Assembly (NCBI GenBank): GCA_002407045.1 | Contig: DHKB01000048.1 | Coordinates: 22,585-86,584, forward strand | Direction: 5' to 3' | Length of the DNA: 64,000 nt | DNA from: Candidatus Bruticola papionis | GTDB taxonomy: Bacteria > Vulcanimicrobiota > Xenobia > Xenobiales > Xenobiaceae | Shown here: positions 80-29,794 of the stretch, in pieces | Position numbering within the stretch: the first letter of the stretch is position 1 | Layout: every line of letters starts with the position of its first letter | Position numbers and translations under genes: made by a program | Notes under the pieces: generated by a model | Told to the model about the DNA's origin: nothing | The model's input: the letters and a program-made list of their open reading frames with translations, nothing else | Databases searched by the model: none

Positions 80-655
80 TTATTCGCTTTTCTGACTTTG
101 GGCCAATTCTTCCATAGAAGCTACAATCTCTGCCACCACCTTTAAATCGGCGGACAGCTTCTGTATATCGATGCCTTGTTGAGAAATTCGATCGATTATT
201 TCAGAATTCAATTTCTTGATGACAGGCCTAGCCTCTTGAAGTGCTCGGCGCCCAGATTCGCTTATTTTTAGGAGTTTGCCACGTTCTGATTTGCCGTTTT
301 TCTTTTCTTCGGCCCAGCTGTTTTCCTGAACCAAAACTCTCATATTACGACACATAGTGGCTGTATCAACCCCTAAATGTTTGGCCAGTTCTACTTGAGA
401 GACACCATCTCTAGCCTCTTGATAGTGCTCGGAATCACACCAGCTCAAATCTTCAAGAGCTTCCAAAACAGCTACTTGAGTAACTCTGATAGGTAACTCC
501 ACACGAAAAGCAGTTGCGGTATTATTGCTGCTCCTGCGAGTACGTTCGACAGAAACTTTTGGCATCAGCGTATTGTAAAGACGCGTCATAGCCCTAGACA
601 GAGAACGAAGGTCGGAGCAAAGAGAGCTGTCTACGTCACCAGTTTTTTTCATCAA
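80..655 (-). CDS. MarR-family winged-helix transcriptional regulator
   Basis: The 191-aa ORF has a central wHTH segment (SQVELAKHLGVDTATMCRNMRVLVQE...KLLKISESGRRAL) typical of MarR/SlyA. It is divergent from the add-like gene. Confidence 0.7.
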   Translation of the reverse strand: MMKKTGDVDSSLCSDLRSLSRAMTRLYNTLMPKVSVERTRRSSNNTATAFRVELPIRVTQVAVLEALEDLSWCDSEHYQEARDGVSQVELAKHLGVDTATMCRNMRVLVQENSWAEEKKNGKSERGKLLKISESGRRALQEARPVIKKLNSEIIDRISQQGIDIQKLSADLKVVAEIVASMEELAQSQKSE

Positions 656-1070
656 ATTATTCCCTGCAAGCGTATAGCAGAAACTAAATCTCCTGTCAGG
701 TAAAAAACCTCACTTTCCTCAGCTGAAGCATATGTAAATATATTCAATACAAGCTGCCCATTAGCTACTCACGGCAGCTTTGAAATTGGCGAATTTTACG
801 CATTATCGGCCTTTTTCCCGAATCGAAGAAGCGACGTTAGCCTTCTCACAAAAACGGTAATCCAACCAATACGCTTTAAACTTCTGCCTAAAACAGATTT
901 TCCTTTGTTTAACCTAACTCCACCCAAAGTCTTCCTTAGCAGGTGTAGTTGGAAGCTATAAAATCTAGTTTTTTTGCATAATACCCCACAAAGTAGCAGA
1001 TTGTTTAGGCAGGAAAAACGCGTTTTATAACCGAAGTCGGGGGGTTAAAACGGAGGATAAAGATAGATAT

Positions 1071-2294
1071 ATGATATTACCTCGCGAGATAATCAGCGCT
1101 CTGCCTAAGACCGACTTACACTTACATCTTGATGGTTCATTGCGTTTGAGTTCCCTTATCGAGATGGCCAAAGAGCGTAACGTTAAACTTCCTTCCTATA
1201 CAGAAGAAGGTATGAACGAACTCGTATTTCGCCCTCATTACAACAACTTAGTTGAATACTTAGAAGGCTTCAACTACACTTGTGCGATTCTCGTCGACGA
1301 AGAGGCTTTAGAAAGAACAGCTTATGAATTAGCTTGGGATAATATCAACGAAGGCGTACGTTATATCGAAACACGCTTCGCCCCCCAACTTCATATCAAT
1401 GAAAAACTCTCCTTAGAGCAAATTATTCGTGCCGTCAACAGAGGTTTTGCCAAAGCCGAAGCCGAGTACAACTCTTCTCCGGCCGTAACCGAAAATGGTG
1501 AACCTCCTTTCCACTATGGCTTAATTACTTGCGCTATGCGCTTTTTTGTGGCCGCCAGCTCTCCTTACTATGCCAAATTGATGGAAGTATTCAGAGAGGC
1601 TCCCCTCAAAGAGATTTATTCTATGGCTTCCTTGGAACTGGCTAGAGCCGTAGTGCGTTTACGTGACGAAGAAGGCATCCCGATTGTGGGCTTCGACTTA
1701 GCCGGAGCTGAAGCTGGCCATCCCGCTAGCGATCACGAGGCAGCCTATCACTACGTACATAAAAACTTTATGCACAAAACCGTACATGCAGGCGAAGCCT
1801 ACGGTCCCGAGAGTATTTTCCAGGCTATCACCGACTTGCATGCCGATCGTATCGGTCACGGTTATCACCTCTTCTCTCCTGAGCTCTGCGGCCCCAATGT
1901 CAAAGATCCTCAGCAATACATTGAGCGTTTAATTCGCCATATTGCCGATAGCCGCACTACTATTGAAGTGTGCATCACTAGCAATATGCAAACCAACCCT
2001 GCTATAGGCGACGTTAAGAACCACGCTTTTGGCAAGATGTTAGCTAACAACTTATCGGCCACGCTGTGCACAGACAACCGTTTAGTCAGCCATACCACCG
2101 TGACCAACGAAGTAGAGTTGGCCCTCAAGACTTTCGATCTTACTCCCAGACAGTTGCGTGACACTATCGTCTATGGATTCAAACGCAGCTTCTTCTTCGG
2201 TCCCTACACCGAGAGACGTAAGTACGTTCGTCAAGTACTCAACTACTACGATTCCATTATTGAAAAATACAATAAAGAGCAAGAGAGCAAGTAG
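1071..2294 (+). CDS. add: Adenosine deaminase family metallo-hydrolase
   Basis: N-terminal metal-binding motif DLHLHLDGSLR, catalytic HAGE, HADRIGHGYHL, and C-terminal TDN motifs are present. An SD (GGAGGA) lies 8 nt upstream of the ATG. At 407 aa it is longer than canonical Add. Confidence 0.8.
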   Translation: MILPREIISALPKTDLHLHLDGSLRLSSLIEMAKERNVKLPSYTEEGMNELVFRPHYNNLVEYLEGFNYTCAILVDEEALERTAYELAWDNINEGVRYIETRFAPQLHINEKLSLEQIIRAVNRGFAKAEAEYNSSPAVTENGEPPFHYGLITCAMRFFVAASSPYYAKLMEVFREAPLKEIYSMASLELARAVVRLRDEEGIPIVGFDLAGAEAGHPASDHEAAYHYVHKNFMHKTVHAGEAYGPESIFQAITDLHADRIGHGYHLFSPELCGPNVKDPQQYIERLIRHIADSRTTIEVCITSNMQTNPAIGDVKNHAFGKMLANNLSATLCTDNRLVSHTTVTNEVELALKTFDLTPRQLRDTIVYGFKRSFFFGPYTERRKYVRQVLNYYDSIIEKYNKEQESK

Positions 2295-2345
2295 TTTCTT
2301 TCTCTTTGAGTCTACAATCATAACGCGATTGTAAACATCTTGCTT

Positions 2346-2397
2346 AAAGCTCCACTTTTCTTTCTCGCGAAAGGAAAGTGGAGCTTTTGCTATTTTA
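2346..2397 (+). terminator. Rho-independent terminator after add
   Basis: Perfect 13-bp stem (aaagctccacttt / aaagtggagcttt) followed by a T-rich tract. Confidence 0.6.
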
Positions 2398-2583
2398 TGG
2401 GTATAAACTCTGCTTTTATAAAAAGCCTTTTTACATAAAAGAAGGCGAATCTATGTCGAGACGTTAACTTCCTGCTCACACCAATTAACTTATTTTGTCC
2501 TATATTCGATAATGTAGAATTGTTTGTTGATCATCAAGATGATTAAGAATAAAAATCAGCTTGATGATCTCGACGGAGGTTCC

Positions 2584-4092
2584 ATGATCAATAGTATTGG
2601 CTCTGCTTCCATATCCACTTTGCAACCGGGAAGCTTAGCTGCTTCCAAAAACAAAGTTCAAGCTCCTCAAGAGGAAAAGCTCTACTGTCAGGCAGCTATT
2701 TCTGACCAAGTAGAGATTCGCCCTCAGACCAAGCTTGAAAAAGTTCTGGCCGCCACCAGCGCCAAAGCAGCCCAATTAGAGCAAGATCTCGAGCCACACG
2801 TACCCGGTCAGGTTATTGTAAAAACCAAGGGCTCTCTTATGCAGAGCACCGGCAATATTGCCAAGAAATACGGTGCTACCGTTTTGGAGAAATTCAGCAA
2901 CGGAACCAGCGTTTTCAAGGGTATGCAGGGCGAGATGCTCCATATTCAGCTGCCTGAAGGCATGACCACAGCTCAGGCTATGGCTGCTATGCAGGAAGAT
3001 CCTGAAATAGAATATGCCGTACCCAATTCCATCTATACTTTAGAAGATGACGCACCTGCCCAGGCTCCAGCTGAAAGTGGCAGCACCACAGTAAAAACCG
3101 ATCAAGGCAAAGTTCCCAACGACTTAGACTCTAAGCTCTGGGGCTTAAAAAATGACGGCCAAGATGGCGGCACGCCCGGAGTAGATATCGACGCTTCTTT
3201 GGCTTGGCAAAAAACTACCGGTCTTCCCAACGGTCAAGGCCCCATTATTGCAGTTATCGATACCGGCGTAGACTACAACCATCCCGATTTAGTCAACAAT
3301 ATCTGGACTAATACCGGCGAAATTCCTGGCAATGGCATTGACGACGATGGCAACGGCGTTATTGACGATGTACATGGCTACAACGCTTTCGATGATAACG
3401 GCGATCCCATGGATGTACACTCTCACGGTACCCATTGCGCTGGTACTATTGCCGCCGAAGGCAATAACGGACAAGGCGTAGTTGGTGTCAACTGGCAAGC
3501 CACCATTATGCCGATTAAAATCTTTAATGACAAAGGACGTACTGACGCTGCGGCCATTATTCGCGGTATCAACTACGCTTCCCAAAACGGCGCCCGCATT
3601 ACTTCCAATTCGTGGGGCGGCGGCGAAGCTAATCAAGCCATTAAAGAGGCCTTTGCTCGCTCCAGCGCCTTGCACATTATGGCTGCGGGTAACTCTTCAG
3701 ACAATAATGACCAGACGCCTCACTTCCCCAGCAGTTACGATTTACCCAACTCGATAGCCGTAGCTGCTACCGACCGCAACGATGAGCTGTGCTATTTCTC
3801 TTGCTACGGCGAAAAGTCGGTCGATATTGCTGCTCCTGGCGAAGACATATACTCCACTATTCCTGGCGGAGGCTATGGCAATAAGAGCGGTACTTCTATG
3901 GCAACTCCTCACGTTAGCGGCGCAGCCGGTTTGCTTTTAGCTATGGATCCAACCATGAGCAATGACGAAATCAAAACCCGCCTCTTCGAAGGAGCCGACA
4001 AAGTGGAAGGCTTAAAAGGCGTTGTTTCTACTGGAGCCCGCTTAAACGTCAACGGAGCTATGGAATACAATTACCAAGCTCCCAACGCTTAG
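2584..4092 (+). CDS. Subtilisin-like serine protease (peptidase S8) with I9-like propeptide, paralog A
   Basis: Catalytic triad motifs VIDTGVDYNHPDL (Asp), HGTHCAGTIAA (His) and GTSMATPHVSGAAGLL (Ser). The start is placed at the ATG preceded by GGAGG (MINSIGS...). The longer ORF from 2524 lacks an SD. No Sec signal peptide is present. Confidence 0.85.
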   Translation: MINSIGSASISTLQPGSLAASKNKVQAPQEEKLYCQAAISDQVEIRPQTKLEKVLAATSAKAAQLEQDLEPHVPGQVIVKTKGSLMQSTGNIAKKYGATVLEKFSNGTSVFKGMQGEMLHIQLPEGMTTAQAMAAMQEDPEIEYAVPNSIYTLEDDAPAQAPAESGSTTVKTDQGKVPNDLDSKLWGLKNDGQDGGTPGVDIDASLAWQKTTGLPNGQGPIIAVIDTGVDYNHPDLVNNIWTNTGEIPGNGIDDDGNGVIDDVHGYNAFDDNGDPMDVHSHGTHCAGTIAAEGNNGQGVVGVNWQATIMPIKIFNDKGRTDAAAIIRGINYASQNGARITSNSWGGGEANQAIKEAFARSSALHIMAAGNSSDNNDQTPHFPSSYDLPNSIAVAATDRNDELCYFSCYGEKSVDIAAPGEDIYSTIPGGGYGNKSGTSMATPHVSGAAGLLLAMDPTMSNDEIKTRLFEGADKVEGLKGVVSTGARLNVNGAMEYNYQAPNA

Positions 4093-4268
4093 CTTCTAGT
4101 TTTGTCTGTAAATAGTGCCTTTGTTTAGCTATTAAGTAAAAATAAAGGTAAACAAGGGTCGATCTTTCTTAGCTTCAATTATAAAAAGCCAGGAGGCTCG
4201 GCCCGTCTTCAATAGAATTTGTATATTAATACATTTCCGTTCAAAAAAAAAATGTTCTAGGAGGCAAG

Positions 4269-5720
4269 ATGATTTCCAATATCGGCCCCAACAGTATAAA
4301 TCAATTACAAAGCACTTATACTCCCCAAGCTGCCACAAAATCGGAAGCTAAAGCAGAAAATTCTAATCCTCAAGTTAGTTCCGACTCTGTGAGCTTAGGC
4401 TCAGAAAAAAGCTCTTTAGGTGAATTCGTTCCTGGTCAGGTTATCATTAAAACCCGCGGTTCCATGATGGCCAGCCTCAACAACGAAAGTGTTGTCGAAA
4501 AATACGGCGCCAAAGTGCTGGACAACTTCCAGATTCCCGGTCGCATGAAAGCTGCCGGTGCTGGTCAAATGATGCAACTTCAGCTTCCCGAAGGTATGAC
4601 CACCGAAGAAGCTTTAGCGCAAATGCAACAGGATCCCAGCATTGAATTTGCCGTTCCTAACACCATTTACCACGCTGAAGATGTTGCCAAAGGTCAAGAG
4701 TTTACCCGTGAGCAATTAGCCGAAGGCAAGGTTCCCAACGACGCCAAGTTTAGTCAGCAGTGGGACATGTACAATGACGGCAGCAAAAACGGTACCGCCC
4801 GCGCCGACATTCACGCCCCCGAAGCTTGGCAAATTACTACCGGTTTACCCAACGGACAGGGTCCTCTAATTGCCGTTATCGATACTGGTGTCGATATCAC
4901 TCACCCCGATTTAGCGGCCAATATCTACACCAACACTAAAGAGATCCCCGACAATGGTATTGACGATGACGGTAACGGTTTTGTAGACGACTATCAGGGC
5001 TGGAATGCTTGCTTGCAAAATGGTGACGTTATGGATCGCCAGGGCCATGGAACTCACGTTGCCGGTACGATCGGTGCTGTAGGCAATAATGGCGAAGGTG
5101 TTACCGGTATAAACTGGTCGGCCACTATTTTGCCCGTTAAAATTTTCAGCGATGATGGTGGTGCCGATGCCGCTTCTATTATTCGCGGTATCAATTATGC
5201 CAATTCCGTAGGTGCTCGCTTAACTTCCAACTCTTGGGGCGGTGGCCCGGCGAACCCTGCCATTCAGGAAGCTTTCCGCAATTCGGCTGATGCCTTGCAC
5301 ATGATGTCGGCTGGCAACTCCGGAACCAACAATGACGTTCATCCTCACTATCCTTCCGACTACGGCTTACCTAACAACGTCGCTGTGGCTGCTACCGATC
5401 GCAACGATCAATTAGCAAAATTCTCTTGCTACGGAGAAAACAACGTTGACATCGCCGCTCCTGGCAAAGATATCCTTTCCACCATCCCTGGCGGAGGCTA
5501 CGCTGTCATGAGCGGTACCTCCATGGCTACTCCCCATGTAACCGGCGCTGCCGGCTTGCTCTTAGCCATGGATCCGGAAATGAGCAACGACGAATTGGTA
5601 GCTCGTCTTACCAAAGGCGGCGACCAATTGGAAAGCTTGCAAGGCAAAGTAGGTAGCGGTGCTCGCCTTAATATCGAAGGCGCCATGAAGTACGATTACC
5701 AAGGCCAAAAGGTCAAGTAA
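4269..5720 (+). CDS. Subtilisin-like serine protease (peptidase S8), paralog B
   Basis: Same D/H/S motifs (VIDTGVDITHPDL, HGTHVAGTIGA, GTSMATPHVTGAAGLL). AGGAGG lies 5 nt upstream of the ATG. The N-terminus MISNIGPNSINQLQ parallels paralog A. Confidence 0.85.
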   Translation: MISNIGPNSINQLQSTYTPQAATKSEAKAENSNPQVSSDSVSLGSEKSSLGEFVPGQVIIKTRGSMMASLNNESVVEKYGAKVLDNFQIPGRMKAAGAGQMMQLQLPEGMTTEEALAQMQQDPSIEFAVPNTIYHAEDVAKGQEFTREQLAEGKVPNDAKFSQQWDMYNDGSKNGTARADIHAPEAWQITTGLPNGQGPLIAVIDTGVDITHPDLAANIYTNTKEIPDNGIDDDGNGFVDDYQGWNACLQNGDVMDRQGHGTHVAGTIGAVGNNGEGVTGINWSATILPVKIFSDDGGADAASIIRGINYANSVGARLTSNSWGGGPANPAIQEAFRNSADALHMMSAGNSGTNNDVHPHYPSDYGLPNNVAVAATDRNDQLAKFSCYGENNVDIAAPGKDILSTIPGGGYAVMSGTSMATPHVTGAAGLLLAMDPEMSNDELVARLTKGGDQLESLQGKVGSGARLNIEGAMKYDYQGQKVK

Positions 5721-5777
5721 GCATACTCTTTTTAGGAAGCTGACTTTTTAAAGTTAAGTTTCCGCCAATTTACTAGC

Positions 5778-5826
5778 CACAGAGGGCGTCTCTTCGAAAG
5801 CTCAGCTTAAAGAGACGCCCTCTGTG
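5778..5826 (+). terminator. Stem-loop (perfect 16-bp stem) downstream of the subtilase pair
   Basis: cacagagggcgtctct ... agagacgccctctgtg with a 17-nt loop. There is no clear T-tract, so it may be a terminator or an RNA-stability element. Confidence 0.45.
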
Positions 5827-5858
5827 CGTCCAAAAATCGTTTTTATAGGAAATTATCT

Positions 5859-6719
5859 ATGCCCAGTCAGTACCAGCCCTATCTAGACTTAGCCCTCAAA
5901 GCTGCCCAACGAGCTGGCGAGCTCATTCGCAAAGCCGTCGGCGAGTCTCACCATATCGATAAAAAAGGCCGCATCAATTTAGTAACTGAAGTCGACAAAG
6001 CTAGCGAAGAGCTTATCTTTTCTTTAATAAAGAGTACCTTCCCTGAACATAGCATTTTAGGTGAAGAACAAGGCCAAATTGTAGGCAGTGACAACAATTG
6101 CCGTTGGATCGTCGACCCTCTGGACGGCACTACCAATTTCGCTTCAGGCTATCCTTTTTTTGCCGTATCTATCGCTTTTGAGCTCAACGGACAAGTAGTA
6201 GTCGGCGTAGTCCACGATCCTTGTCACGAAGAGACCTTCTATGCCATTTTAGGCGAAGGCGCCTACTTAAACAGCCAGCCTATACACGTAAGTGACACTT
6301 CCGTTTTGGAAGATGCTCTTTTAGTTACCGGTTTTCCTTACGATGTCAGTAGTTCACCTGATATTCATTTGGGCATGTTCCACGATTTGATTATCAAAGC
6401 CAGAGGTGTACGTCGCGACGGTTCTGCCGCCTTAGACCTTTGCTATATAGCTTGTGGTCGTTTTGACGGCTACTGGGAATTGGGCCTTTCTCCTTGGGAT
6501 ATCGCTGCTGGTTCCTTAATAGTTAAAGAAGCAGGTGGCAAGATGAGTGATTTCTTAGGCGAACCGCACAACATGTTGTATCGCGACCTAATGGCTTCCA
6601 ATGGAAAAATTCATCCAGCCCTCTTGGAAGCTGCTAAAAAGTACACCACAGCTTTACGCCAGTCTCCTTATTGGATCGAAAAGGGCGAGCGTATCGATCA
6701 TTCCACTTACAAACGCTGA
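5859..6719 (+). CDS. suhB: Inositol monophosphatase family protein (SuhB-like)
   Basis: IMPase motif WIVDPLDGTTNF and the ~286-aa length fit the family. An AGGAAA SD is present. Confidence 0.8.
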   Translation: MPSQYQPYLDLALKAAQRAGELIRKAVGESHHIDKKGRINLVTEVDKASEELIFSLIKSTFPEHSILGEEQGQIVGSDNNCRWIVDPLDGTTNFASGYPFFAVSIAFELNGQVVVGVVHDPCHEETFYAILGEGAYLNSQPIHVSDTSVLEDALLVTGFPYDVSSSPDIHLGMFHDLIIKARGVRRDGSAALDLCYIACGRFDGYWELGLSPWDIAAGSLIVKEAGGKMSDFLGEPHNMLYRDLMASNGKIHPALLEAAKKYTTALRQSPYWIEKGERIDHSTYKR

Positions 6720-6890
6720 GGCAGTGCTTGCATTGTTAAATAAGCTTCGTTTTCCGATTTGAAGGCAATTTTATTGCCTAATCGGGCAGGGAAATTCTCT
6801 CAGCCTAAAATTACCGGGCAGGTAGCAGCTCTCTAATGGTTAAGCAAGCTCCTGCCTTTTTAATAAATGCTGCAATAAAGGAAGACTCAT

Positions 6891-8849
6891 ATGGATTCTG
6901 CTAACTGGAATATAGACAAAAGCGACGAACTCTATTCTATCAAGCGTTGGGGAGCTCCATATTTTTCTATCAATTCCAACGGTCATTTAGTGGTATCGCC
7001 CCAAGGTGAGCGCGGCGGTTCTATCGATCTTTACACTTTAATTGAAGCTCTGAAAGGGCGTGGTTTAAGTTTGCCTATTCTGCTTCGTTTTCCAGATATT
7101 CTCCAAGATCGTATCGAGCGTTTAAATTCGGCTTTTGCCAGAGCTATAGCCAAATATAATTATCCGGGCGTCTATCGCGGTGTCTTCCCTGTTAAAGTTA
7201 ATCAACAGCGCCATATTATAGAAGAATTGGTTAAATGCGGTACGCCTCATCACTTTGGTTTAGAAGCAGGTTCTAAGCCAGAATTACTGATTGCTCTCTC
7301 GGCTATACATTCCACTGAGTGTCTTATCACTTGCAACGGTTACAAAGACCGCGAATATTTGGAAACAGCCATTTTAGCTTCCAAACTTGGGAAAAAAGTC
7401 ATCATCATTTTGGAGCAACTAGACGAAGTATGTTTGGCCGTACGTGTAGCTAAAGCTCTAAATTTGCCTGCGTCTTTCGGTTTTAGAGTAAAACTCAATC
7501 GTAAAAGCCAAGGCCATTGGGGCAGCAGCGTAGGCGAAAGAGCCAAATTTGGCATGTCCGCCTATGAGATTTATCAAGCTGTACAAATTCTTATCAACAA
7601 CGATATGTTGGAGAATTTGAAGTTGCTTCACTTCCATATCGGTTCGCAAATTTCGGCAATAAGTGTCATCAAAGGAGCTTTGCGCGAAGCCGGTCGCATC
7701 TACGCCGAATTGGTAAAATTAGGCGCTCCTATGGGCTTTTTAGACGTGGGCGGAGGCCTGGCTGTCGACTACGACGGTTCCAAGAGCGACTTCTACGCCT
7801 CTAAAAATTATAATATGCAAAGCTATGCCAACGACGTAGTAGCTGAAATAAATGATGCTTGCAAACAAGCCAAAATTAAAGCTCCTACCATTATTAGTGA
7901 AAGTGGCCGAGCCTTAGCTTCCCACCAATCGATTTTGGTTTTTGACGTTTTAGGTCAAAATAAAGTTGGCAATTTCAATATTCCTCCGGCTGTCGGCGAT
8001 GAAGACTACATTATAAAAACTCTGCGTGAAATTTATGAAGGCATTACTCCGGAAAATGCGCAAGAGTCTTTCCACGACGCTGTCCAATTTAAAGATGAAG
8101 CTCTGAGCGCTTTTCAGTTGGGCATGCTTTCACTCAAAGATCGAGCTCTGGCAGAAAAGTTATACTGGCAATCATGCCGTAAGATCTACGAGACCTTGCG
8201 CGAAGCCAACGCTACTAGCGACGACTTCTTTACTCTAGAGAAATTGCTCTCTACTACTTATTATGTCAATTTGTCAGTTTTCCAATCAGCTCCCGACTCT
8301 TGGGCTCTCGATCAGTTGTTCCCTATTTTACCTATTCATCGTTTAGATACGGCTCCCGACGAAAAAGTTACTCTGGCCGATCTCACTTGCGACTCCGACG
8401 GTAAGATTGACAAATTTATCGATATAAAAGAAGACGTCAATTCTTTGCTAGACGTTCATTCTTTGCGCTTTAATTCCGAGACTAACTTTTACGGCACTGA
8501 AGAAGAAGGTAAAGTTCCCGAACGCTTAAGCCACGAGCCATACTACTTAGGCATGTTTTTAATTGGAGCTTATCAAGAGACTATGGGCAATTTACATAAC
8601 CTCTTCGGCGATACCCATGCTGTACAAGTAAAGCTAACTCCCTCAGGCTACAGACTCGAACATATTGTACGCGGCGACACCATGAGCAAAGTGCTCTCTT
8701 ACTTCCAGTATAACCCAGAAGATTTGCTCGAACGTATGCGCCAGCAATGTGAAGATGCTTTAAGCGAAAATTCTCTCACCTTAGAAATGTCGCAAAAATT
8801 GCTCAATAACTTCGAGCGCAGCTTAGCCAGTTATACTTACATGTCGTGA
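6891..8849 (+). CDS. speA: Biosynthetic arginine decarboxylase
   Basis: 652 aa. The N-terminus (WGAPYFSINSNGHLVV) and the PLP-dependent fold-III decarboxylase core match SpeA. AAGGAAG SD is present. Confidence 0.85.
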   Translation: MDSANWNIDKSDELYSIKRWGAPYFSINSNGHLVVSPQGERGGSIDLYTLIEALKGRGLSLPILLRFPDILQDRIERLNSAFARAIAKYNYPGVYRGVFPVKVNQQRHIIEELVKCGTPHHFGLEAGSKPELLIALSAIHSTECLITCNGYKDREYLETAILASKLGKKVIIILEQLDEVCLAVRVAKALNLPASFGFRVKLNRKSQGHWGSSVGERAKFGMSAYEIYQAVQILINNDMLENLKLLHFHIGSQISAISVIKGALREAGRIYAELVKLGAPMGFLDVGGGLAVDYDGSKSDFYASKNYNMQSYANDVVAEINDACKQAKIKAPTIISESGRALASHQSILVFDVLGQNKVGNFNIPPAVGDEDYIIKTLREIYEGITPENAQESFHDAVQFKDEALSAFQLGMLSLKDRALAEKLYWQSCRKIYETLREANATSDDFFTLEKLLSTTYYVNLSVFQSAPDSWALDQLFPILPIHRLDTAPDEKVTLADLTCDSDGKIDKFIDIKEDVNSLLDVHSLRFNSETNFYGTEEEGKVPERLSHEPYYLGMFLIGAYQETMGNLHNLFGDTHAVQVKLTPSGYRLEHIVRGDTMSKVLSYFQYNPEDLLERMRQQCEDALSENSLTLEMSQKLLNNFERSLASYTYMS

Positions 8850-8879
8850 AATAATTAAGAAACGGAGCTTACCTTAAAA

Positions 8880-10232
8880 GTGAATCCTCTCCCAACAGAA
8901 TCTGAATCCACCCAAACTACAGCTCCTGTTTCCGCTGTCGATAAAAACCGTGAAGCGGTGCCCTCGGAAGTAATTATTGCTTCCGCCAGTAGAGCTTATG
9001 CGCCAACAGCCTTAAATTTGGCTCCGCTAAGCGAGCAAACCGGACACCGCTTAATAAATAGCATCAAAGGGTTGGGCACCATTTTGCTGGCGCTCAGTCT
9101 CATTATCGCTTGCTTCCATCCTTGGACAAAACAAGCTATCGAAGAGACTTTAAGCATTACCCCCTTGCTTTTGCTGGTACTTATTTTCGTCTATGTGGTC
9201 AATCCCATAGTCGAATTTTTAATGGTGCAAATTAGAAAAATACCGGGCGCCCAATATTTTTCTTATACAAAATCACTAGTTGTCACTTACGTTTTACTCT
9301 TGGTACTAGCTTTAAGTGTACTTGCTTTAGCTGCCCCTCAGCTATTTGGTGAAATCAAAAGTTTGGCAGAGAACTTCCCAACTATTACCCAAAAAGCGAT
9401 CGCTATTTTAGATCATTTTCGCCAAACTCACCTAGCAGTTCTACCTAGCAGTGTACAAAGCAACATCACCGAGCTAGTAAATCAAGCCGGAAGTTTGGCT
9501 GGGCAACTTATTAACAGAGGCTTACAATATGCAAGCGCTTTCTCGTCTGCTATAGTTTGGGTTGCTACAGCCATAGTAATGGTTCCTTTTATCTCTTTTT
9601 ACATGCTCAGCGAAGGCCAAGAACTGGTAGATTTTTGGGTTAATTTATTGCCTATTCGCCGCCGCCAACCGGCTAAGAATATTCTGTTGCAATTACATTA
9701 CTCCATGAAAAGCTTCATAAAAGGCCAAGCCTTACTTTGCTGTGCGGTCGGCGGCTTGACCACATTACTTATGGCCCTAGTAATGCCAAAGTATTGTATA
9801 GCTTTAGGAATTATTGCAGGCATTACAGAAGCTATTCCTATAATCGGCCCTATTTTGGGAGCATTGCCAGCCGTACTGTTGGCTTTGGCTTTACCGGATA
9901 CTGGCGGCATTACCTTAGCCTTAATTGTGGCAGCCGTTTATATTCTCATTCAACAAGCTGAAAACAATTTCTTAGTGCCACAAATCATGGGAGATAGTCT
10001 GGGCCTTCACCCTCTCAGTTTGATGATTGGCATGATGGTGTTTGCCAATGTATTTGGCTTTTGGGGAGTAGTATTGGCTTCCCCCATTGTGGCAGCGGTA
10101 AGGATATTAGTTATTCATTATTGCAACCCCGAACTTGAAGCGAAACTTTTAGAGCAATTAAAGCAACGCGAACAGAAAGCGCTAACTTCTGTAAATTCAG
10201 ACGTTAGTGCCGACAGTCAGCCTAAGAATTAG
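8880..10232 (+). CDS. AI-2E family transporter (PerM/UPF0118)
   Basis: Multi-TM protein with the conserved C-terminal block ...LIQQAENNFLVPQIMGDSLGLHPLSLMIGMMVFANVFGFWGVVLASPIVAAV. The GTG start lies 30 nt after the speA stop. Confidence 0.75.
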   Translation: MNPLPTESESTQTTAPVSAVDKNREAVPSEVIIASASRAYAPTALNLAPLSEQTGHRLINSIKGLGTILLALSLIIACFHPWTKQAIEETLSITPLLLLVLIFVYVVNPIVEFLMVQIRKIPGAQYFSYTKSLVVTYVLLLVLALSVLALAAPQLFGEIKSLAENFPTITQKAIAILDHFRQTHLAVLPSSVQSNITELVNQAGSLAGQLINRGLQYASAFSSAIVWVATAIVMVPFISFYMLSEGQELVDFWVNLLPIRRRQPAKNILLQLHYSMKSFIKGQALLCCAVGGLTTLLMALVMPKYCIALGIIAGITEAIPIIGPILGALPAVLLALALPDTGGITLALIVAAVYILIQQAENNFLVPQIMGDSLGLHPLSLMIGMMVFANVFGFWGVVLASPIVAAVRILVIHYCNPELEAKLLEQLKQREQKALTSVNSDVSADSQPKN

Positions 10233-12246: not shown

Positions 12247-14154
12247 TTGCCTGAGATTCCTGCTTCCTTACAACAAATAATAAAAATATGTGAAAAAATA
12301 TCCATCGGTGAAGCTGAACCAGGAGCTTTAAATGGATTATTTGTCAAAGCCAGACAGGTAATTGCCTTCGAACGTACAGGTTTGGAACGCTTTACTTGGG
12401 ATGCCATTTGGACTGACAAATTTCAAAGTCTGGTCAATAAACTTCAAGCAGAATTGGAAGCGCACGAAAAGGCTTTACAAGACTTAGAAAATTCCTTAAG
12501 CGATGCAGAACCTTTTGCTATCGAAAAAGCGGGGCGCGACTTAAAATACAGCGCCGAAGCTGTAGCTACTCTGTGGGATGAGCTCAATGCGGAAGTGGGA
12601 GAGCAAATGGTCATGTCTCCCTACCCAGTTTACGACCACTTACTTAAAGTTGGCCAAAATATTTTACAAGGCCACGTTGATCCTTCTGTGCTGACGGCTT
12701 TCTTCACTCCAGCAGCCGATTTTACTATCCGACTTCGCGCAGCAGTCAAGCGTTTTGTCTTATTTTACGGCGAATCTTCCCTTTCAGAATGTGCCCAAAA
12801 AGTTATAACTAACGTCGAAGCTGGTATGGGTGCTTTGGATAAATTTTTACAAAGTGGCCAAACTAAAGCTTTAGATGATGCTTTGCACCTTTTGGTAACT
12901 ACTACGGTCACTATGTATACAGTTATGAGCGACATGGGACAGTGGGCAGCAGCTGAAAAGAAATATGCCCGCCATCCCTTAGTCGAAGAGCTCTATCGTG
13001 CCAGAGAAGCAAAATTGCAAGGAGAAGATCTCTCTTACCTCTGGCAAGCTATTAAACATGCCTTAAAATTAGAGCTTACTCAAGTACAAACTTTGCTCAA
13101 TCATCCCCTGGCTTCTCTTTGTGACGTTCATAGTCAAGCTCTTAAAGCGGGCATGGCCCGCGTTATGTATATAGTTCAAGAGGGCGAAAAAAAGAGCTTG
13201 GACGAATTAAACTTGCCAGAATTTGATATTATGTTGCTTAATTTAGATCGTTTAATTCACAACGATTTAACCCATATAAATATCGAATGTCGCTTAGTGT
13301 CTGGAGCTCCCAATTTTGAAGAATTATTAGTGACAGTCGGTTTGGCTATGGATGGTAAGATCGAGCCTGAAGCCTTCAAAATTATTCTCCAAGACACTTT
13401 AGAAAGAATTGAAGAGACCCAAAATAACCTTGATGGCGCTTTGGAGCAGCTTAGTGCAGAAGATTTAGAGCTTTTGGCTCACTGCTTAGATTGCCAAGCT
13501 CTGGGGTGCCGCGAACTGGCTTCCTGGTGCGAAACTGGTGACAAGCAATTGCTTAAAAACGGTTGGCGGCGTATTAGTGCCAGTTTACCATCTACCAAAC
13601 GCATTTGTGCTCAAATGAAAAAAAGCTTAGGGTTAAACGACAATTCTTCTAAAAAGCTCACTTGCATGCGCTGCGGCCAACAGAATCCCGCTTCAGCTCG
13701 TTACTGTTCCAAATGTTCAGCCGTACTTATGCAATTAGTGCAAGCACCTCCAATGGAATATACCGATTTAGAAACTGGCCTCAGCGATAGCAACTTTGAA
13801 CATCCCTTGCCAGGCAACATCTTGAAGCTGGAACAATTGGTACGCTCAGTAGAAAGCGGTCAAGCTTACACTCAAGAAGCTGCCGAAGTGTTGGACAAGC
13901 TGTTAAGCAGCGCTTATGCCTATCGCAAACTATATATCAACAGAGTACGCCCGGCCTTAGAAAGAGAACAAATTGATCCTTCTATAGCCGAACGTTTCGA
14001 AATAGGTATGAGTTCCTATATTGATGGTTTAGAAATATGCCGCAACTTTGTAGAAGATCCGCAAATTGATTATTTATATAACGGTCTAGATCAAGCTTCG
14101 GCAGCAGCTTTGGAATTGAATGAATTGCAAACAGAATTGGCCGATTACTTCTAA
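12247..14154 (+). CDS. Hypothetical helical protein with zinc-ribbon (CxxC-x10-CxxC)
   Basis: Long ORF with no in-frame ATG near its 5' end. The start is proposed at TTG 12247, which is preceded by GGAGAAAG (TTG 12214 is an alternative). The protein contains CMRCGQQNPASARYCSKCSAV. Confidence 0.5.
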   Translation: MPEIPASLQQIIKICEKISIGEAEPGALNGLFVKARQVIAFERTGLERFTWDAIWTDKFQSLVNKLQAELEAHEKALQDLENSLSDAEPFAIEKAGRDLKYSAEAVATLWDELNAEVGEQMVMSPYPVYDHLLKVGQNILQGHVDPSVLTAFFTPAADFTIRLRAAVKRFVLFYGESSLSECAQKVITNVEAGMGALDKFLQSGQTKALDDALHLLVTTTVTMYTVMSDMGQWAAAEKKYARHPLVEELYRAREAKLQGEDLSYLWQAIKHALKLELTQVQTLLNHPLASLCDVHSQALKAGMARVMYIVQEGEKKSLDELNLPEFDIMLLNLDRLIHNDLTHINIECRLVSGAPNFEELLVTVGLAMDGKIEPEAFKIILQDTLERIEETQNNLDGALEQLSAEDLELLAHCLDCQALGCRELASWCETGDKQLLKNGWRRISASLPSTKRICAQMKKSLGLNDNSSKKLTCMRCGQQNPASARYCSKCSAVLMQLVQAPPMEYTDLETGLSDSNFEHPLPGNILKLEQLVRSVESGQAYTQEAAEVLDKLLSSAYAYRKLYINRVRPALEREQIDPSIAERFEIGMSSYIDGLEICRNFVEDPQIDYLYNGLDQASAAALELNELQTELADYF

Positions 14155-18294: not shown

Positions 18295-21200
18295 CTACTG
18301 CTTCTTCAGAACAATAGTAGCACCCGCAGGGAGGAAAATTCCATTTCCAGAGCTTACAGTACCGCCACCATTGCCAGTACCGGTGCCACCATAGCAGCGA
18401 GCGTTGGTATTAAACACTTCTTTCCACTGACCAGGAGGCAACTCCATACGATAGCCAGAGCGATCAGTATTGGCGAAGTTGGAAACTACCACAAACTCAT
18501 CAGATCCGCCATTGTCGCGTTTCCAAGCCAGCACTTTGTCGTCGTTGTGAGTATAAACTCGGCTAGTATTACCAGTAGCATTGAAAGCGGAAGAAGTACG
18601 ACGTAAAGCGACCAAATCGCGAGTCAAGGCGAATTGTCCAACCTGATTGGCCAGATCTTCAGCATCTTTCCTCTGCTCAGGATTCATCTCACAATAGCGA
18701 TCGAACAGCTTTTGCTCGTCAGCACTCATACGAGAGCGCTCTACTTCTCGAGAAGAATTGTCCATAGCAGCGCACTTAGCAAAGTGATCCAACTTGTCGG
18801 GAGTGACAGGGAACTTGATCCAGCTCATATCGGCTCCCCAAGTGGAAGTTAAACCGTGCTTAAAGTCGTTATTGGCCAAGAATTCTTCACCTTGGAAGAG
18901 CATAGGCACACCAGGGCCGGTTAAAGTGATAGCCGAAGCGGTACGAGCGATAGCGCGAGGGAAAGGCTGTTTGACAGCTTCGTCATCTTTGGAAGCTGCT
19001 GCACCGCGATGGATCCAGTTACCAGTATTACCTACTTCATCGTGGCTGTGAGAGTAAGTGACAGCACGACTCCAATCAGTTACGCCTACGTGGCAAGTGA
19101 TAGCTTCCATTAAGCGATCGGCGCTACCGACGCCCTGGGCCATTTCCAATAAGTCATCATGGAAGCGATCGTTCCATACACCGCTAAAGCCCATGCCCTT
19201 CTTTTCCCAACTGCCCTGACCGGATCCCTGAGTTTCAGACTTATCCATATCGGCGGCTACTAACCAGCTGCCACTAAAGTCTTCGGCTACTGTGTATACG
19301 TCAGGTTTAATCAAACGCAAAGAGCGGTTAATCTGACGCAAGGTATTCATACCCTCAATTTGCTCAGCGGAATTGCCTGTAGAGTGCAAAACTTGAGTAA
19401 AGTCGAAGCGGATACCATCGAAGCCAAACTCAGCAACTTGCTGTACAGCGTTGTCAGAATAGAAATCTTTGACGCTCTGGTTGGCGAAATTGGGCTTGGC
19501 GCCCCAAGGAGTGCAAGACTCGCCTTGCTGCCACCAATTGAAGAAGGAACGCTTGCCACCGTCGATACGCCCTAAAGGATCGTCGGCATCTGGCTTACCA
19601 GAAGTGTGGTTGTAAACCACGTCGGCCATAACATTGAAACCGCGTTTGTGGCTCTCATCTACAAAGAGCTTCATAGCGTCAGTACCAGAGATCCATACAC
19701 TCTTGGCGCCGGGCTGTTCGTCATCGGTAATGAGCTTGCGATCTAAAGCTTCCTGGCGATCCATTTCAAAACCATAGCTAGCCGCGCCGGCATAGTAATA
19801 GTCGGGAGTGTAGCCCCAGTCACGCTTGGCCCCAAACTCGTTAGTCGGCATAAGCTCGATAGTATCAATGCCTAAAGAAGCAAAGTAATCGAGGTTGTTG
19901 ATCATGTCTTCAAAGGTAGCCGGAACAGCATTATCCTTGGAGCTCATGAATGAACCGACGTGGGCTTCGTAAATTACGAAGTTGTTGTGATTGGTCTGAC
20001 GTCTGGGAACGTTATCGTATTGGAATTCAAAGCTAGACTCACGAATTAAAGATTTGCGAGCAGATCCGGGCTTGGGTTGGATAACGTTTGTGTAAGGATC
20101 ATTGAAAGGAGTAGCTATACGCTCTTGATTGCTGAGTTTGCCATCTCCATTGACATCACCGACCAACTTGCCGTCTTCTACAACTTGGTATTCGTATTGC
20201 ATACCGATCAGTTTGGGGAAATTGTTAACAGCGGTCACCCAAGCTGTGCCGGCGCCAGGGCTATCTACGCGATTCATATCGATAGAGCCGTCTTCGTTAA
20301 CACTATTGATCCAAGAGTATTTGTCGATAGGCTCAGTCTGATCTAATTTCCAATTGCGCAATACGTCTACGTCATGTTTATCGGCAGGTGAAGCTTGATC
20401 GTAGGGAATGCGCTCAGGTTTGCCCAAACGATCTAACAACTCTTGTTTGTTGAGTTGCTTGCCATTTTCATCACGCAAAACTAAACGCACACTGTCGGCA
20501 TTGGGGTGAGAATCGACTGTAAAACGTCCCCATTGAGGATCGTCGGCATAGTTGGGGCCGCCTTTACCGCTATCATCGTACCAACCGACTTCGAAGCCCA
20601 TAACGGGATCGACAAAGATACGCTCTAAGCCGCGCTGCTCACCTTGCAAATAACGAGCGTGGGGATCTGAATAGCGAACTTCTCCGCCCCAGCTGTTTTT
20701 TAAGACTTCGCCCTTTTCATTTAAAGCGGCATACTGGTAAGTTTTACCTTTGAGCTTACTCCAACCGTCGTTTTGAGTGAGCGTCCAAACGCCATTTTGC
20801 TCGTTTTTTTCCATGGGCAAGCGTTCTTCAATTTCGCCGGTCTGGGGGTTGCTTATTTCTACATAAAGCTTGTAATCGGCCAAATCACCTTTGCCCATTT
20901 CCGGAGACCAAGTCTGGAAACGAACGCCGTCTTCACCCTCTTTGTGGACGCCGAAAAGGTGCGTTTGCACTGGAGCGTAAGTCTGGACAGGATAATCTTC
21001 TAAATTGAAGTTGGGGTTGGTTTCGCTCATAACTAACCACTGAGCATTTTGCACTTTACCATCTTTGCCGGTAACATCGCCAACAACGCCCCAACTAAAT
21101 TGCTGATTTTGGCCAGTTTTAAGATCTACGGCCGCAGTAAAAATACCGTCTCCGGCCACGGCATCGCCATTTTTGCCGTCGTCGCGCATAGGAATAATCT

Positions 21201-21609
21201 TGTCGCCATTCCAGTGCTGATCATATAAACCGGTCTGATCGTTGAAAGATCCCTTCAAACCGATATTGCTAAGATCGACTTGCGGACAGCCGCGGCTGTC
21301 AAATTGGAAAAGGACTTGCTTTTTGTCGGTGCCTTCAGGCTGTACGGAAGCGTTTTCGGCCTTTACTTGAGCCGTGGGCATTTTGGGAGCACCGGCAGCA
21401 ACTTCTTTGCTATCGGTACTATTTAACGAAAAACTGTCTACGGGAACAGCCGAAGCGGACGCCTGAGGGGCAGTCTGCTTAGATGCAGCAACGCTATTAT
21501 TTTGTGCCACGGAGCCGGCCCGGAATAAGTCGGAAGAGCGTTCTATATTTATATTCATCAATTCCTTACTCTTTTCTACGTAGGTGACGAAATTTTTTGT
21601 CCTAAACAA
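18295..21609 (-). CDS. Large GH13 alpha-amylase family glycoside hydrolase with N-terminal accessory/CBM-like domains
   Basis: GH13 catalytic regions are present (GFDGIRFDFTQ, the FNVMADVVYNHTS His region, and downstream EVGNTG / YSHSHDE blocks). The maximal ORF starts at TTG 21609. An in-frame ATG at 21558 (MNINIE...) is an alternative. No Sec signal peptide is present. Confidence 0.8.
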   Translation of the reverse strand: MFRTKNFVTYVEKSKELMNINIERSSDLFRAGSVAQNNSVAASKQTAPQASASAVPVDSFSLNSTDSKEVAAGAPKMPTAQVKAENASVQPEGTDKKQVLFQFDSRGCPQVDLSNIGLKGSFNDQTGLYDQHWNGDKIIPMRDDGKNGDAVAGDGIFTAAVDLKTGQNQQFSWGVVGDVTGKDGKVQNAQWLVMSETNPNFNLEDYPVQTYAPVQTHLFGVHKEGEDGVRFQTWSPEMGKGDLADYKLYVEISNPQTGEIEERLPMEKNEQNGVWTLTQNDGWSKLKGKTYQYAALNEKGEVLKNSWGGEVRYSDPHARYLQGEQRGLERIFVDPVMGFEVGWYDDSGKGGPNYADDPQWGRFTVDSHPNADSVRLVLRDENGKQLNKQELLDRLGKPERIPYDQASPADKHDVDVLRNWKLDQTEPIDKYSWINSVNEDGSIDMNRVDSPGAGTAWVTAVNNFPKLIGMQYEYQVVEDGKLVGDVNGDGKLSNQERIATPFNDPYTNVIQPKPGSARKSLIRESSFEFQYDNVPRRQTNHNNFVIYEAHVGSFMSSKDNAVPATFEDMINNLDYFASLGIDTIELMPTNEFGAKRDWGYTPDYYYAGAASYGFEMDRQEALDRKLITDDEQPGAKSVWISGTDAMKLFVDESHKRGFNVMADVVYNHTSGKPDADDPLGRIDGGKRSFFNWWQQGESCTPWGAKPNFANQSVKDFYSDNAVQQVAEFGFDGIRFDFTQVLHSTGNSAEQIEGMNTLRQINRSLRLIKPDVYTVAEDFSGSWLVAADMDKSETQGSGQGSWEKKGMGFSGVWNDRFHDDLLEMAQGVGSADRLMEAITCHVGVTDWSRAVTYSHSHDEVGNTGNWIHRGAAASKDDEAVKQPFPRAIARTASAITLTGPGVPMLFQGEEFLANNDFKHGLTSTWGADMSWIKFPVTPDKLDHFAKCAAMDNSSREVERSRMSADEQKLFDRYCEMNPEQRKDAEDLANQVGQFALTRDLVALRRTSSAFNATGNTSRVYTHNDDKVLAWKRDNGGSDEFVVVSNFANTDRSGYRMELPPGQWKEVFNTNARCYGGTGTGNGGGTVSSGNGIFLPAGATIVLKKQ

Positions 21610-22048
21610 CCTAACCCTAGAACTTTTGACGTTTTAGACTTCACCTTAGCCGAAACGACCGGGTAAACGCCCACTTCGTCGCCGATTGCCGCCGCCTCCG
21701 AACCGCAATTCCAAGACAACGAACAGATCGCCAAACCAACGAAAAAAGTCCTACCATTCATTATCTCAAATGTACAAAGTTTTTTATGTATAAACAAGCA
21801 TATTTTTTATTTATTTTTACATTTTTTCCAAAAGCTCACTCCTTTGTAACAATCTGATTTTTTACTTTGGATGGTAGGTGCCCAGCTTCAAAAATTTCCG
21901 CAAAAAACAGCTAATAAGTATTTTTTTATAAAAAATGACAAAGGACAGGGGCTGACAGTATCAAAAAGGCACGATCGGTTATATAATTTTCTCAGAAACG
22001 GAATCTGGTCAAACAGTGCAAATAAGATCTTATAAAGGAGGGCAGTAT

Positions 22049-24448: not shown

Positions 24449-24456
24449 ATCTAAAT

Positions 24457-24508
24457 GTCTAAGCAATAAGGCCCGGGCGCTTAAGCGCCCGGGCCTTATT
24501 GCTTAGAC
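24457..24508. terminator. Perfect 52-bp palindrome (24-bp stem, 4-nt loop)
   Basis: gtctaagcaataaggcccgggcgc ttaa gcgcccgggccttattgcttagac sits immediately after the paralog-1 stop. It is probably a bidirectional intrinsic terminator, although no T-tract follows. Confidence 0.55.
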
Positions 24509-24608
24509 TAATTTGTACTGTCCCTAAAAAATCTTTATTTTTTTATTTACCCCGCTAAACGGCAAAAAAATGTTACAACCATAGAACGAAATATTAATAT
24601 TTGAGAAC

Positions 24609-24637
24609 TTGAATATTTAACCTATACAAAGTTTAAT
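24609..24637 (+). promoter_or_regulatory. Candidate sigma70-type promoter for paralog 2
   Basis: TTGAAT-17nt-TTTAAT lies in the AT-rich spacer ~115 nt upstream of ATG 24752. It has been read by eye only. Confidence 0.3.
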
Positions 24638-24751
24638 AAAGTGGGTAGGTTTTGCACTTAGTTTGCGGCAACTTTCATTTTTTAGCTCCATTTCGGCTGA
24701 ATTTATTTTGCTTAGGCAAGCATTCCGATCCTCATAGGGAGGTAAAAACTT

Positions 24752-27097: not shown

Positions 27098-27169
27098 AAC
27101 AATCCTAGTAACAACCTCTATAAGTTGTACCAATTCCTTATAGCTGATAGCAAAATTCGGAGAGAGAAT

Positions 27170-29608: not shown

Positions 29609-29629
29609 AATACAACACAAGCTCGAACG

Positions 29630-29672
29630 AGGCCGCCGTTTTTCGCAAACGGCGGCCTTTTTTATTATTTTT
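29630..29672 (+). terminator. Rho-independent terminator after paralog 3
   Basis: ggccgccgtt tttcgcaa acggcggcc followed by tttttattatttttt. Confidence 0.8.
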
Positions 29673-29794
29673 TAATGATTTTGTGTAGGAACTTTTAGCT
29701 GCAACTAAAAAGGCGCTCTTTAGAATATTTTCTTATTTATTCGGAGTTTTCGCCATTTTATAGTTTTTTTAGTTTCCTCAGGAGAAAGTAGATC

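Follow-up and report, generated by a model that had tools for sequence, protein, structure and literature searches.

Two tandem subtilase genes in Candidatus Bruticola papionis

This work concerns the N-terminal region, here called the leader, of three enzymes encoded on a 64,000-nucleotide stretch of DNA from Candidatus Bruticola papionis (assembly GCA_002407045.1, contig DHKB01000048.1, positions 22,585 to 86,584 of the forward strand; hereafter the window): two S8 proteases (subtilases) in tandem, paralogs 1 and 2, which are 57% identical to each other, and a GH13 alpha-amylase-family enzyme. The subtilase genes and the signals around them are listed first, in window coordinates.

2346..2387, + strand: intrinsic-terminator-like hairpin, a 19-bp stem followed by a T-run, ending the upstream adenosine deaminase gene
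2485..2513, + strand: promoter-like site TTAACT-17-GATAAT, upstream of subtilase 1 (consensus match only)
2575..2579, + strand: ribosome-binding site GGAGG, 4 nt ahead of the ATG at 2584
2584..4092, + strand: subtilase paralog 1, 502 aa; leader, amphipathic helix (aa 50-68), N-prodomain (aa 62-148), S8 catalytic domain (aa 217-474)
4260..4264, + strand: ribosome-binding site GGAGG, 4 nt ahead of the ATG at 4269
4269..5720, + strand: subtilase paralog 2, 483 aa; leader, N-prodomain (aa 47-131), S8 catalytic domain (aa 196-447)

Both proteins matched Peptidase_S8 (PF00082; E-values of 2.7e-60 for paralog 1 and 1.8e-54 for paralog 2) and the fervidolysin-type N-prodomain (PF22148; 2.1e-9 and 3.6e-7, respectively), and the DTGVD, HGTH, NSWGG and GTSMA catalytic motifs were undamaged in each, which bears out a preliminary description of the pair, made from the sequence alone, as tandem S8 proteases with a prodomain. 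AlphaFold2 (AF2) models of the two proteins (mean predicted local distance difference test, pLDDT, of 88.6 for paralog 1 and 86.4 for paralog 2) placed a beta-alpha-beta prodomain at high pLDDT in both; the extra amphipathic helix of paralog 1 was absent from paralog 2. The solved structure nearest to the catalytic domain was that of deseasin MCP-01 (3vv3; 49% identity, template modelling score 0.92 in Foldseek).

The hairpin at 2346-2387 ends the adenosine deaminase gene, and subtilase 1 is therefore read as a separate transcription unit; the adenosine deaminase-subtilase gene order is also kept in Xenobium (locus L023). The nearest in-frame upstream stops lay only 13-23 codons away in the window and in orthologues, and no hydrophobic segment was present in the intervening stretches. 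The two GGAGG sites, the close stops, and the terminator and promoter-like site ahead of paralog 1 exclude an overlooked start or signal peptide further upstream, which the preliminary description had itself named among the findings that would speak against it; the absence of a Sec signal from these proteins is real.

The subtilases begin with a disordered leader that matches no known export signal

Over the first 60 residues, the 11-residue Kyte-Doolittle mean peaked at 0.9 in paralog 1 and at 1.3 in paralog 2, as against 2.2-3.4 for window proteins with clear signal peptides (genes starting at 10308, 38685, 43399, 46152 and 59427), so that the preliminary description was right both that the subtilases have no hydrophobic core and that other exported proteins of the window carry normal signal peptides. 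By hydropathy, neither paralog has the h-region of a Sec signal peptide, a hydrophobic run of about 7-15 residues that follows a basic n-region within the first 30-40 aa, and the leader sequences contain no RR, h-region or lipobox Cys of the kind expected of Tat or lipoprotein signals. Since the other exported proteins of the window use ordinary signal peptides, the leader marks a distinct class. The window also encodes LptF/G-like permeases and many proteins with normal signal peptides. An outer membrane containing lipopolysaccharide is present in the phylum's sole isolate (PMC9758169).

In the AF2 models pLDDT was below 50 at residues 1-36 of paralog 1 and residues 1-46 of paralog 2, rising to ~80 at residues 41-50 of paralog 1, and the leader was not docked onto the enzyme in either model. 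No relevant match to the leaders was obtained in Pfam (E up to 10; leaders alone and 22 N-terminal regions), in NCBIfam or in a profile search of the PDB, and the literature searched gave no account of the leader or of Xenobia secretion systems. The leader is thus covered by no Pfam, NCBIfam or PDB family, and described in none of the libraries or papers searched.

The leader consists of two parts, a start of the form M-[I/L/M]-x-x-Φ (Φ, hydrophobic residue), followed by more hydrophobic residues near positions 10 and 13, and a short, strand-like motif [P/S]-x-D-[S/Q/A]-[V/A]-x-[I/L/F]-[G/S], with a variable polar linker between them.

2584..2625, + strand: leader module 1 of paralog 1, MINSIGSASISTLQ (aa 1-14), with hydrophobic residues at positions 2, 5, 10 and 13
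2626..2700, + strand: variable polar linker of paralog 1 (aa 15-39), pLDDT below 50
2701..2721, + strand: leader module 2 of paralog 1, SDQVEIR (aa 40-46)
4269..4310, + strand: leader module 1 of paralog 2, MISNIGPNSINQLQ (aa 1-14)
4380..4400, + strand: leader module 2 of paralog 2, SDSVSLG (aa 38-44), disordered in the AF2 model; matched by the GH13-leader profile described below (E 0.015)

The shared N-terminal motif that had been proposed for the pair is conserved across the family, although the two copies are less than 'near-identical', agreeing at 8 of their first 14 residues. The stretch ahead of the prodomain also does not span 70-90 residues in both proteins, as first given; ~71 residues precede the first prodomain strand in paralog 1 and ~52 in paralog 2, and the Pfam boundaries put the start of the prodomain at residues 62 and 47, respectively.

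Conservation was assessed in the 120 best homologues, all of which came from Eremiobacterota-type sources (Ca. Bruticola, Ca. Xenobium and Vulcanimicrobiota metagenome-assembled genomes, MAGs). Position 2 or 3 was I, L, V, M or F in 115 of the 120, and a [D/E]-x-Φ-x-Φ motif occurred in 100 of them at a median position of 38 (interquartile range 37-40); the same motif was found in none of 120 internal control windows. Residues 2-25 of the homologues were composed chiefly of A (14%), S (14%), P (10%), I (7%), N (7%) and Q (7%), and positions 2-15 held 0.31 acidic residues per sequence. When paralog 1 was compared with its orthologues, the N-terminal module was 86% identical in Bruticola and 43% in Xenobium and the motif 70% and 60%, whereas identity in the linker was 58% and 8%, respectively. 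Two islands are therefore under constraint within a disordered stretch. Some family members have the short 'MI...' start alone, directly ahead of the prodomain.

The best full-length homologues were found in Eremiobacterota (also known as Vulcanimicrobiota or WPS-2), at 82% identity in Ca. Bruticola and 65% in Ca. Xenobium; near-identical loci (93-96%) were present in human-gut MAGs, including Hadza samples, and the tandem pair was kept in those MAGs and in Bruticola. Leader-bearing subtilases also appeared in MAGs labelled Candidatus Riflebacteria bacterium HGM23016 (L003, CAAGRW010000140.1; 95%) and Selenomonadaceae bacterium (L007, JBBCJA010000015.1; 57%), both of which are probably mis-binned or mis-classified. 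The polar linker of some subtilase leaders (P0048, P0057, P0065, P0071, P0083, P0103 and P0105) contained Cys clusters, such as KSDCGCSH and GCPGCGATPCGCGS, which may be metal- or disulfide-related.

The leader takes the place of a Sec signal peptide

S8 proteins of other phyla that share the same prodomain entry, FVPGE[IL][IL]VKFK, carried classical signal peptides at the eight genome loci inspected (L009-L011, L013, L016, L019, L021 and L022), and a hydrophobic core was present in at least 51 of 75 outgroup metagenome S8 loci, several of the remaining open reading frames (ORFs) being over-extended. The metagenome search, run with the full alignment, had picked up generic S8 motifs and yielded subtilases of other phyla alone, which served as controls. 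The leader profile matched none of these outgroup proteins. In the Eremiobacterota branch of the S8 family, the leader stands where these relatives have their Sec signal, which adjoins the shared prodomain. With deseasin-type S8A proteases and fervidolysin-type pro-subtilases the paralogs have the D/H/S triad and the PF22148 prodomain in common, and the catalytic domain is 49% identical to that of deseasin MCP-01 (3vv3), but the known members begin with a Sec signal and the Eremiobacterota branch with the disordered two-part leader.

A leader of the same type on a GH13 enzyme

The third carrier in the window belongs to an unrelated family.

18295..21558, - strand: GH13 alpha-amylase-family enzyme, 1087 aa; CBM48, choice-of-anchor-X stretch, catalytic domain and Alpha-amylase_C; leader MNINIERSS...AVPVDSFSLNS
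21421..21441, - strand: leader module 2 of the GH13 enzyme, VDSFSLN (aa 40-46)

An AAGGA site precedes the ATG of this gene, and the product (18295-21558) has no Sec signal peptide; its choice-of-anchor-X stretch scored above the NCBIfam cut-off. Ninety-two GH13 homologues from Eremiobacterota start M-[K/N/Q]-[I/V/L], and many of them have P-x-D-S-V-x-[IV]-G-G about 35 residues in, as in MKIDSTKSQQIANNQIKRQAPEENKGPSDSVSIGG.

Profiles were built from 84 subtilase leaders and from 25 GH13 leaders. With the subtilase-leader profile, matches were obtained to the N-termini of 15 GH13 proteins (best E 2e-4 at Z=1000), each of them in register, and to no reversed sequence. This profile did not reach the window's own GH13 enzyme. 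Conversely, the GH13-leader profile matched 30 of 120 subtilases, in every case at the N-terminus, with a best E of 7.7e-4 and 13 matches below 0.05 (paralog 2, E 0.015); the best control score among 4118 ORFs of other phyla was E 0.21. Because the matches are position-specific and the controls clean, chance is an unlikely source of the sharing between families. The leader is common to two unrelated families, S8 and GH13, and its range thus goes beyond the preliminary description, extending over the whole Eremiobacterota branch of the S8 family and an unrelated GH13 enzyme.

Judged by their domains, the enzymes look extracellular. Deseasin MCP-01, which their catalytic domain resembles, is a secreted collagenolytic subtilase; larger S8 relatives bear an InhA-like MAM domain; and an intact folding prodomain, a DDDGNG-type loop, MAM-like C-terminal domains and choice-of-anchor-X are typical of extracellular proteins.

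Gene neighbourhoods and other candidate carriers

A Ser-rich protein of 394 aa (56629-57813, - strand), whose gene follows a GAGGG site and whose sequence starts MISQQVNNSVNVQSV and finds no match in Pfam or NCBIfam, was considered as a further carrier; its N-terminus resembles some subtilase leaders, yet neither leader profile detects it, and the other candidates picked by eye were likewise unsupported by the profiles.

PilZ-domain genes directly adjoin leader-bearing S8 or GH13 genes at four loci (L026, 8942-9934; L027, 9164-9925; L116, 5120-5875; L112, 1-759), with the order ThrC-PilZ-GH13 common to L027 and L116; the window has no PilZ gene. The PilZ proteins of L023, L026 and L027 were mutually dissimilar and are not orthologous across lineages. 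Pseudopilin genes lay nearby in 4 of 9 loci, a frequency that, by rough estimate, is not clearly above chance. Divergent from the GH13 gene, the window encodes four tandem paralogues of ~800 aa (22016-32167, + strand; 35-55% identical) with PilX_N-type hydrophobic N-termini (PF14341, first E 8e-8), the remainder of each having no family match.

At the Eudoremicrobiaceae loci (L028-L030, from TARA and other marine contigs), a giant ORF of 2777-3141 aa (470-9895) just upstream of the subtilase starts AIKKTGSS, much like the leader-bearing subtilase itself, which starts MLKPTGSS on the TARA scaffold. A 250-aa gene with weak C39_2 likeness follows the subtilase at these loci (12341-13093 region), with a pseudopilin cluster ~2 kb further on. 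Elsewhere in the window, a 1183-aa ORF (48221-51772, - strand), which we take, by eye, to resemble pyruvate:ferredoxin oxidoreductase, lies in the only stretch with a G+C content above 0.50 (0.50-0.52, versus ~0.44 elsewhere).

A Sec-independent export or targeting leader as the best explanation

Taken together, these sequence comparisons are best explained if the first 45-50 residues of both subtilases and of the GH13 enzyme form a leader that is particular to this lineage, is borne by a few hydrolases and directs their export or targeting without Sec, a reading that we consider about evenly balanced against all others combined. That the leader would mediate export is inferred, and the 'non-classical signal' of the preliminary description is plausible.

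Several results weigh against this explanation. The best NCBIfam matches of the GH13 enzyme were to TreZ, GlgB and GlgX, which are normally cytoplasmic. The scores between the two families were modest (12-18 bits) and came largely from the short motif and linker composition. A few outgroup S8 proteins with the prodomain also lack a signal peptide (L031, L097, L103 and L107). No conserved transporter or chaperone gene adjoined the leader genes at ~12 loci. Neither profile matched any proteins but those of the S8 and GH13 families across ~330 kb of Eremiobacterota DNA, so the leader marks a small set of proteins and is not a general signal. When the leader profile, 46 positions long, was run exhaustively against 1.84 billion protein representatives, 6 matches reached E<1e-3 (5 subtilase fragments and 1 repetitive adhesin); the profile is too short for a collection of that size, and the search is therefore uninformative on further carrier families.

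The main alternative, and a serious rival although in our judgement an unlikely one, is that the enzymes are intracellular, residing in the cytoplasm or bound to an internal structure, with the leader acting as a regulatory, tethering or degron segment and the prodomain keeping the protease latent; an intracellular tethering domain was also among the alternatives of the preliminary description. The cytoplasmic affinities of the GH13 enzyme, the outgroup S8 proteins without a signal peptide and the absence of linked secretion genes at the loci viewed would all fit such a role, as would the fact that these proteins have no export signal of a known type; the adjoining genes for PilZ, a cyclic di-GMP receptor, could also point to internal regulation. 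The nearest relatives, however, are exoproteases with signal peptides, the prodomain, DDDGNG-type loop, MAM-like domains and choice-of-anchor-X argue for the outside of the cell, and a broad-specificity subtilase activating in the cytoplasm would be hazardous to the cell. Intracellular subtilisins (ISPs) of Bacillus are comparable in being S8 proteases with an N-terminal extension and no signal peptide. They have no classical prodomain and only a short inhibitory N-terminal extension, whereas the full PF22148 prodomain is kept in both paralogs and the leader is undocked in the AF2 models.

The preliminary description had likened the N-termini to type III secretion signals. The leader is consistent with that idea by resemblance only, in composition, paucity of acidic residues, disorder and division into two parts, and we regard the specific assignment to type III as improbable. 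Under such an assignment, whether to a flagellar or an injectisome-like system, opening of the export gate would fall to the N-terminal module and D-x-V-x-I would dock the substrate, the latter being likened to the gate-recognition motif of early flagellar subunits or to the chaperone-binding beta-motif of effectors. The closest mechanistic analogue is the two-part signal of early flagellar type III substrates, which likewise has a disordered N-terminus, a hydrophobic first element, a second element ~30-40 residues in and an apparently constrained spacing; the second element is nevertheless D-x-V-x-I-G/S in the leader and an F-x-x-x-Φ type motif in flagellar subunits, and the carriers are hydrolases and not axial proteins. 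The spacing between the N-terminal hydrophobic signal and the gate-recognition motif matters for export of FlgD and FlgE (PMC8983047), and the two parts of the leader keep a conserved spacing as well. A leader that is disordered, rich in Ser, Ala, Pro, Asn, Gln and Ile and acid-poor at its N-terminus is permissive for type III export, a feature that discriminates poorly.

A likeness to the N-terminal half of FlgM, the anti-sigma-28 factor exported by the flagellar type III system, was checked on the proteins of Bacillus and E. coli. The Bacillus protein starts MKINQ..., with DK[IV]EISS at residues 32-38, and both leader profiles matched it in register (E 0.0065-0.05 at Z=1000, ahead of all of more than 4000 control ORFs, whose best scores were 0.21-0.23), one alignment spanning residues 1-38 and ending at DKIEISS. 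Against homology, hhalign alignments of leader and FlgM reached only 43% probability over 13 columns, E. coli FlgM scored at noise level (E 3.5), the Pfam FlgM model was not matched by the leader, the sigma-28-binding C-terminal half of FlgM is absent from it, and the Bacillus sequences, being close relatives, count as one independent observation; the likeness amounts to a short-motif similarity, and a relationship to FlgM is at most tentative. Flagellar genes, flgG and fliI among them, are present in marine Eudoremicrobiaceae (PMC9259500), which carry the leader-bearing S8 protease. Vulcanimicrobium alpinus, the only isolate of the phylum, has no flagella (PMC9758169), a point whose weight depends on whether V. 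alpinus bears leader proteins, and none of the loci viewed, which for this organism amounted to ~64 kb plus flanks, contained a recognised gene of a type III or flagellar system.

Double-glycine leaders, which are exported by peptidase-containing ABC transporters (PCATs), are similarly conserved, N-terminal and non-hydrophobic with a motif near the end, and some members of the present family do end in ...IGG or ...LGS. Most, however, have no Gly-Gly (EIRPQ, SISFN, EINFN), the hydrophobic spacing differs, the cargo is 50-120 kDa, and no C39-ABC transporter was found next to leader genes at the ~12 loci, the weak C39_2-like gene of L028-L030 standing alone.

It is very doubtful that the N-terminal stretch is a family-specific extension of the propeptide, serving folding or inhibition, with the GH13 likeness arising from composition and chance. 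Such an origin would suit the low bit scores between families, the failure of the subtilase profile to reach the window's own GH13 enzyme, and the position of the motif in paralog 1, where it adjoins a confident helix packing on the prodomain (pLDDT ~80 at residues 41-50). It sits poorly with a motif that is fully disordered in paralog 2, with reciprocal matches that were all N-terminal and in register and had no counterpart at comparable E in reversed or foreign controls, and with a GH13 family that has no prodomain and yet keeps M-x-I... and DSVxIGG at the same distance. The least credible candidate is a cargo-loading peptide for an encapsulin-type compartment, for which the small number of carriers and a partial resemblance of D-S-V-x-I-G-S to the targeting motif S-L-x-I-G-S-L-K are the sole support. 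No shell gene lay near any of the ~12 loci, and neither the PDB nor Pfam gave a match to the leader. The targeting peptides known so far mostly sit at the C-terminus, and the known cargo does not include proteases or amylases that bear domains of extracellular type.

A proposed route and its significance

If the leader is a Sec-independent export or targeting signal, we picture its use as follows. The initiator methionine would be retained, because a bulky residue stands at position 2 or 3, and a machine for export or targeting that does not depend on Sec would recognise both conserved islands in trans, docking through one while the other engages the channel and the linker keeps them apart as a spacer. 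Passage of the subtilase through the envelope would take place in the unfolded state; once outside the cell, the protease would be folded by its prodomain and would lose leader and prodomain together on autoprocessing.

More tentatively, and with somewhat less confidence than in the export or targeting reading itself, the sequences may point to an undescribed Eremiobacterota pathway that reads M-Φ-x-x-Φ, a spacer of ~30 aa and P-S-D-S-V-x-I-G-S, and that secretes a small dedicated group of hydrolases, at least S8 and GH13 enzymes, without Sec. Such a pathway could be a one-step route across both membranes. As the leader stands on S8 and GH13 enzymes instead of an ordinary secretion signal, the phylum may export a few enzymes by a route that has yet to be described.

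Eremiobacterota (WPS-2) are a widespread and almost uncultured phylum with members in human and animal guts, this organism included. Should the leader be an intracellular segment after all, a secreted protease family would have been re-purposed inside the cell, an unusual course for any subtilase in which the prodomain is retained. Should it be an export signal, it would define a secretion class that is recognisable from sequence and would be missed by current predictors, based as they are on Sec, Tat, lipoprotein, type III or type IX signals, and metagenome annotation would wrongly assign exoproteases and glycosidases of the whole phylum to the cytoplasm. Being short, conserved and portable, with a spacer that works like a ruler, such a leader is directly testable and would be useful for the engineering of protein secretion.

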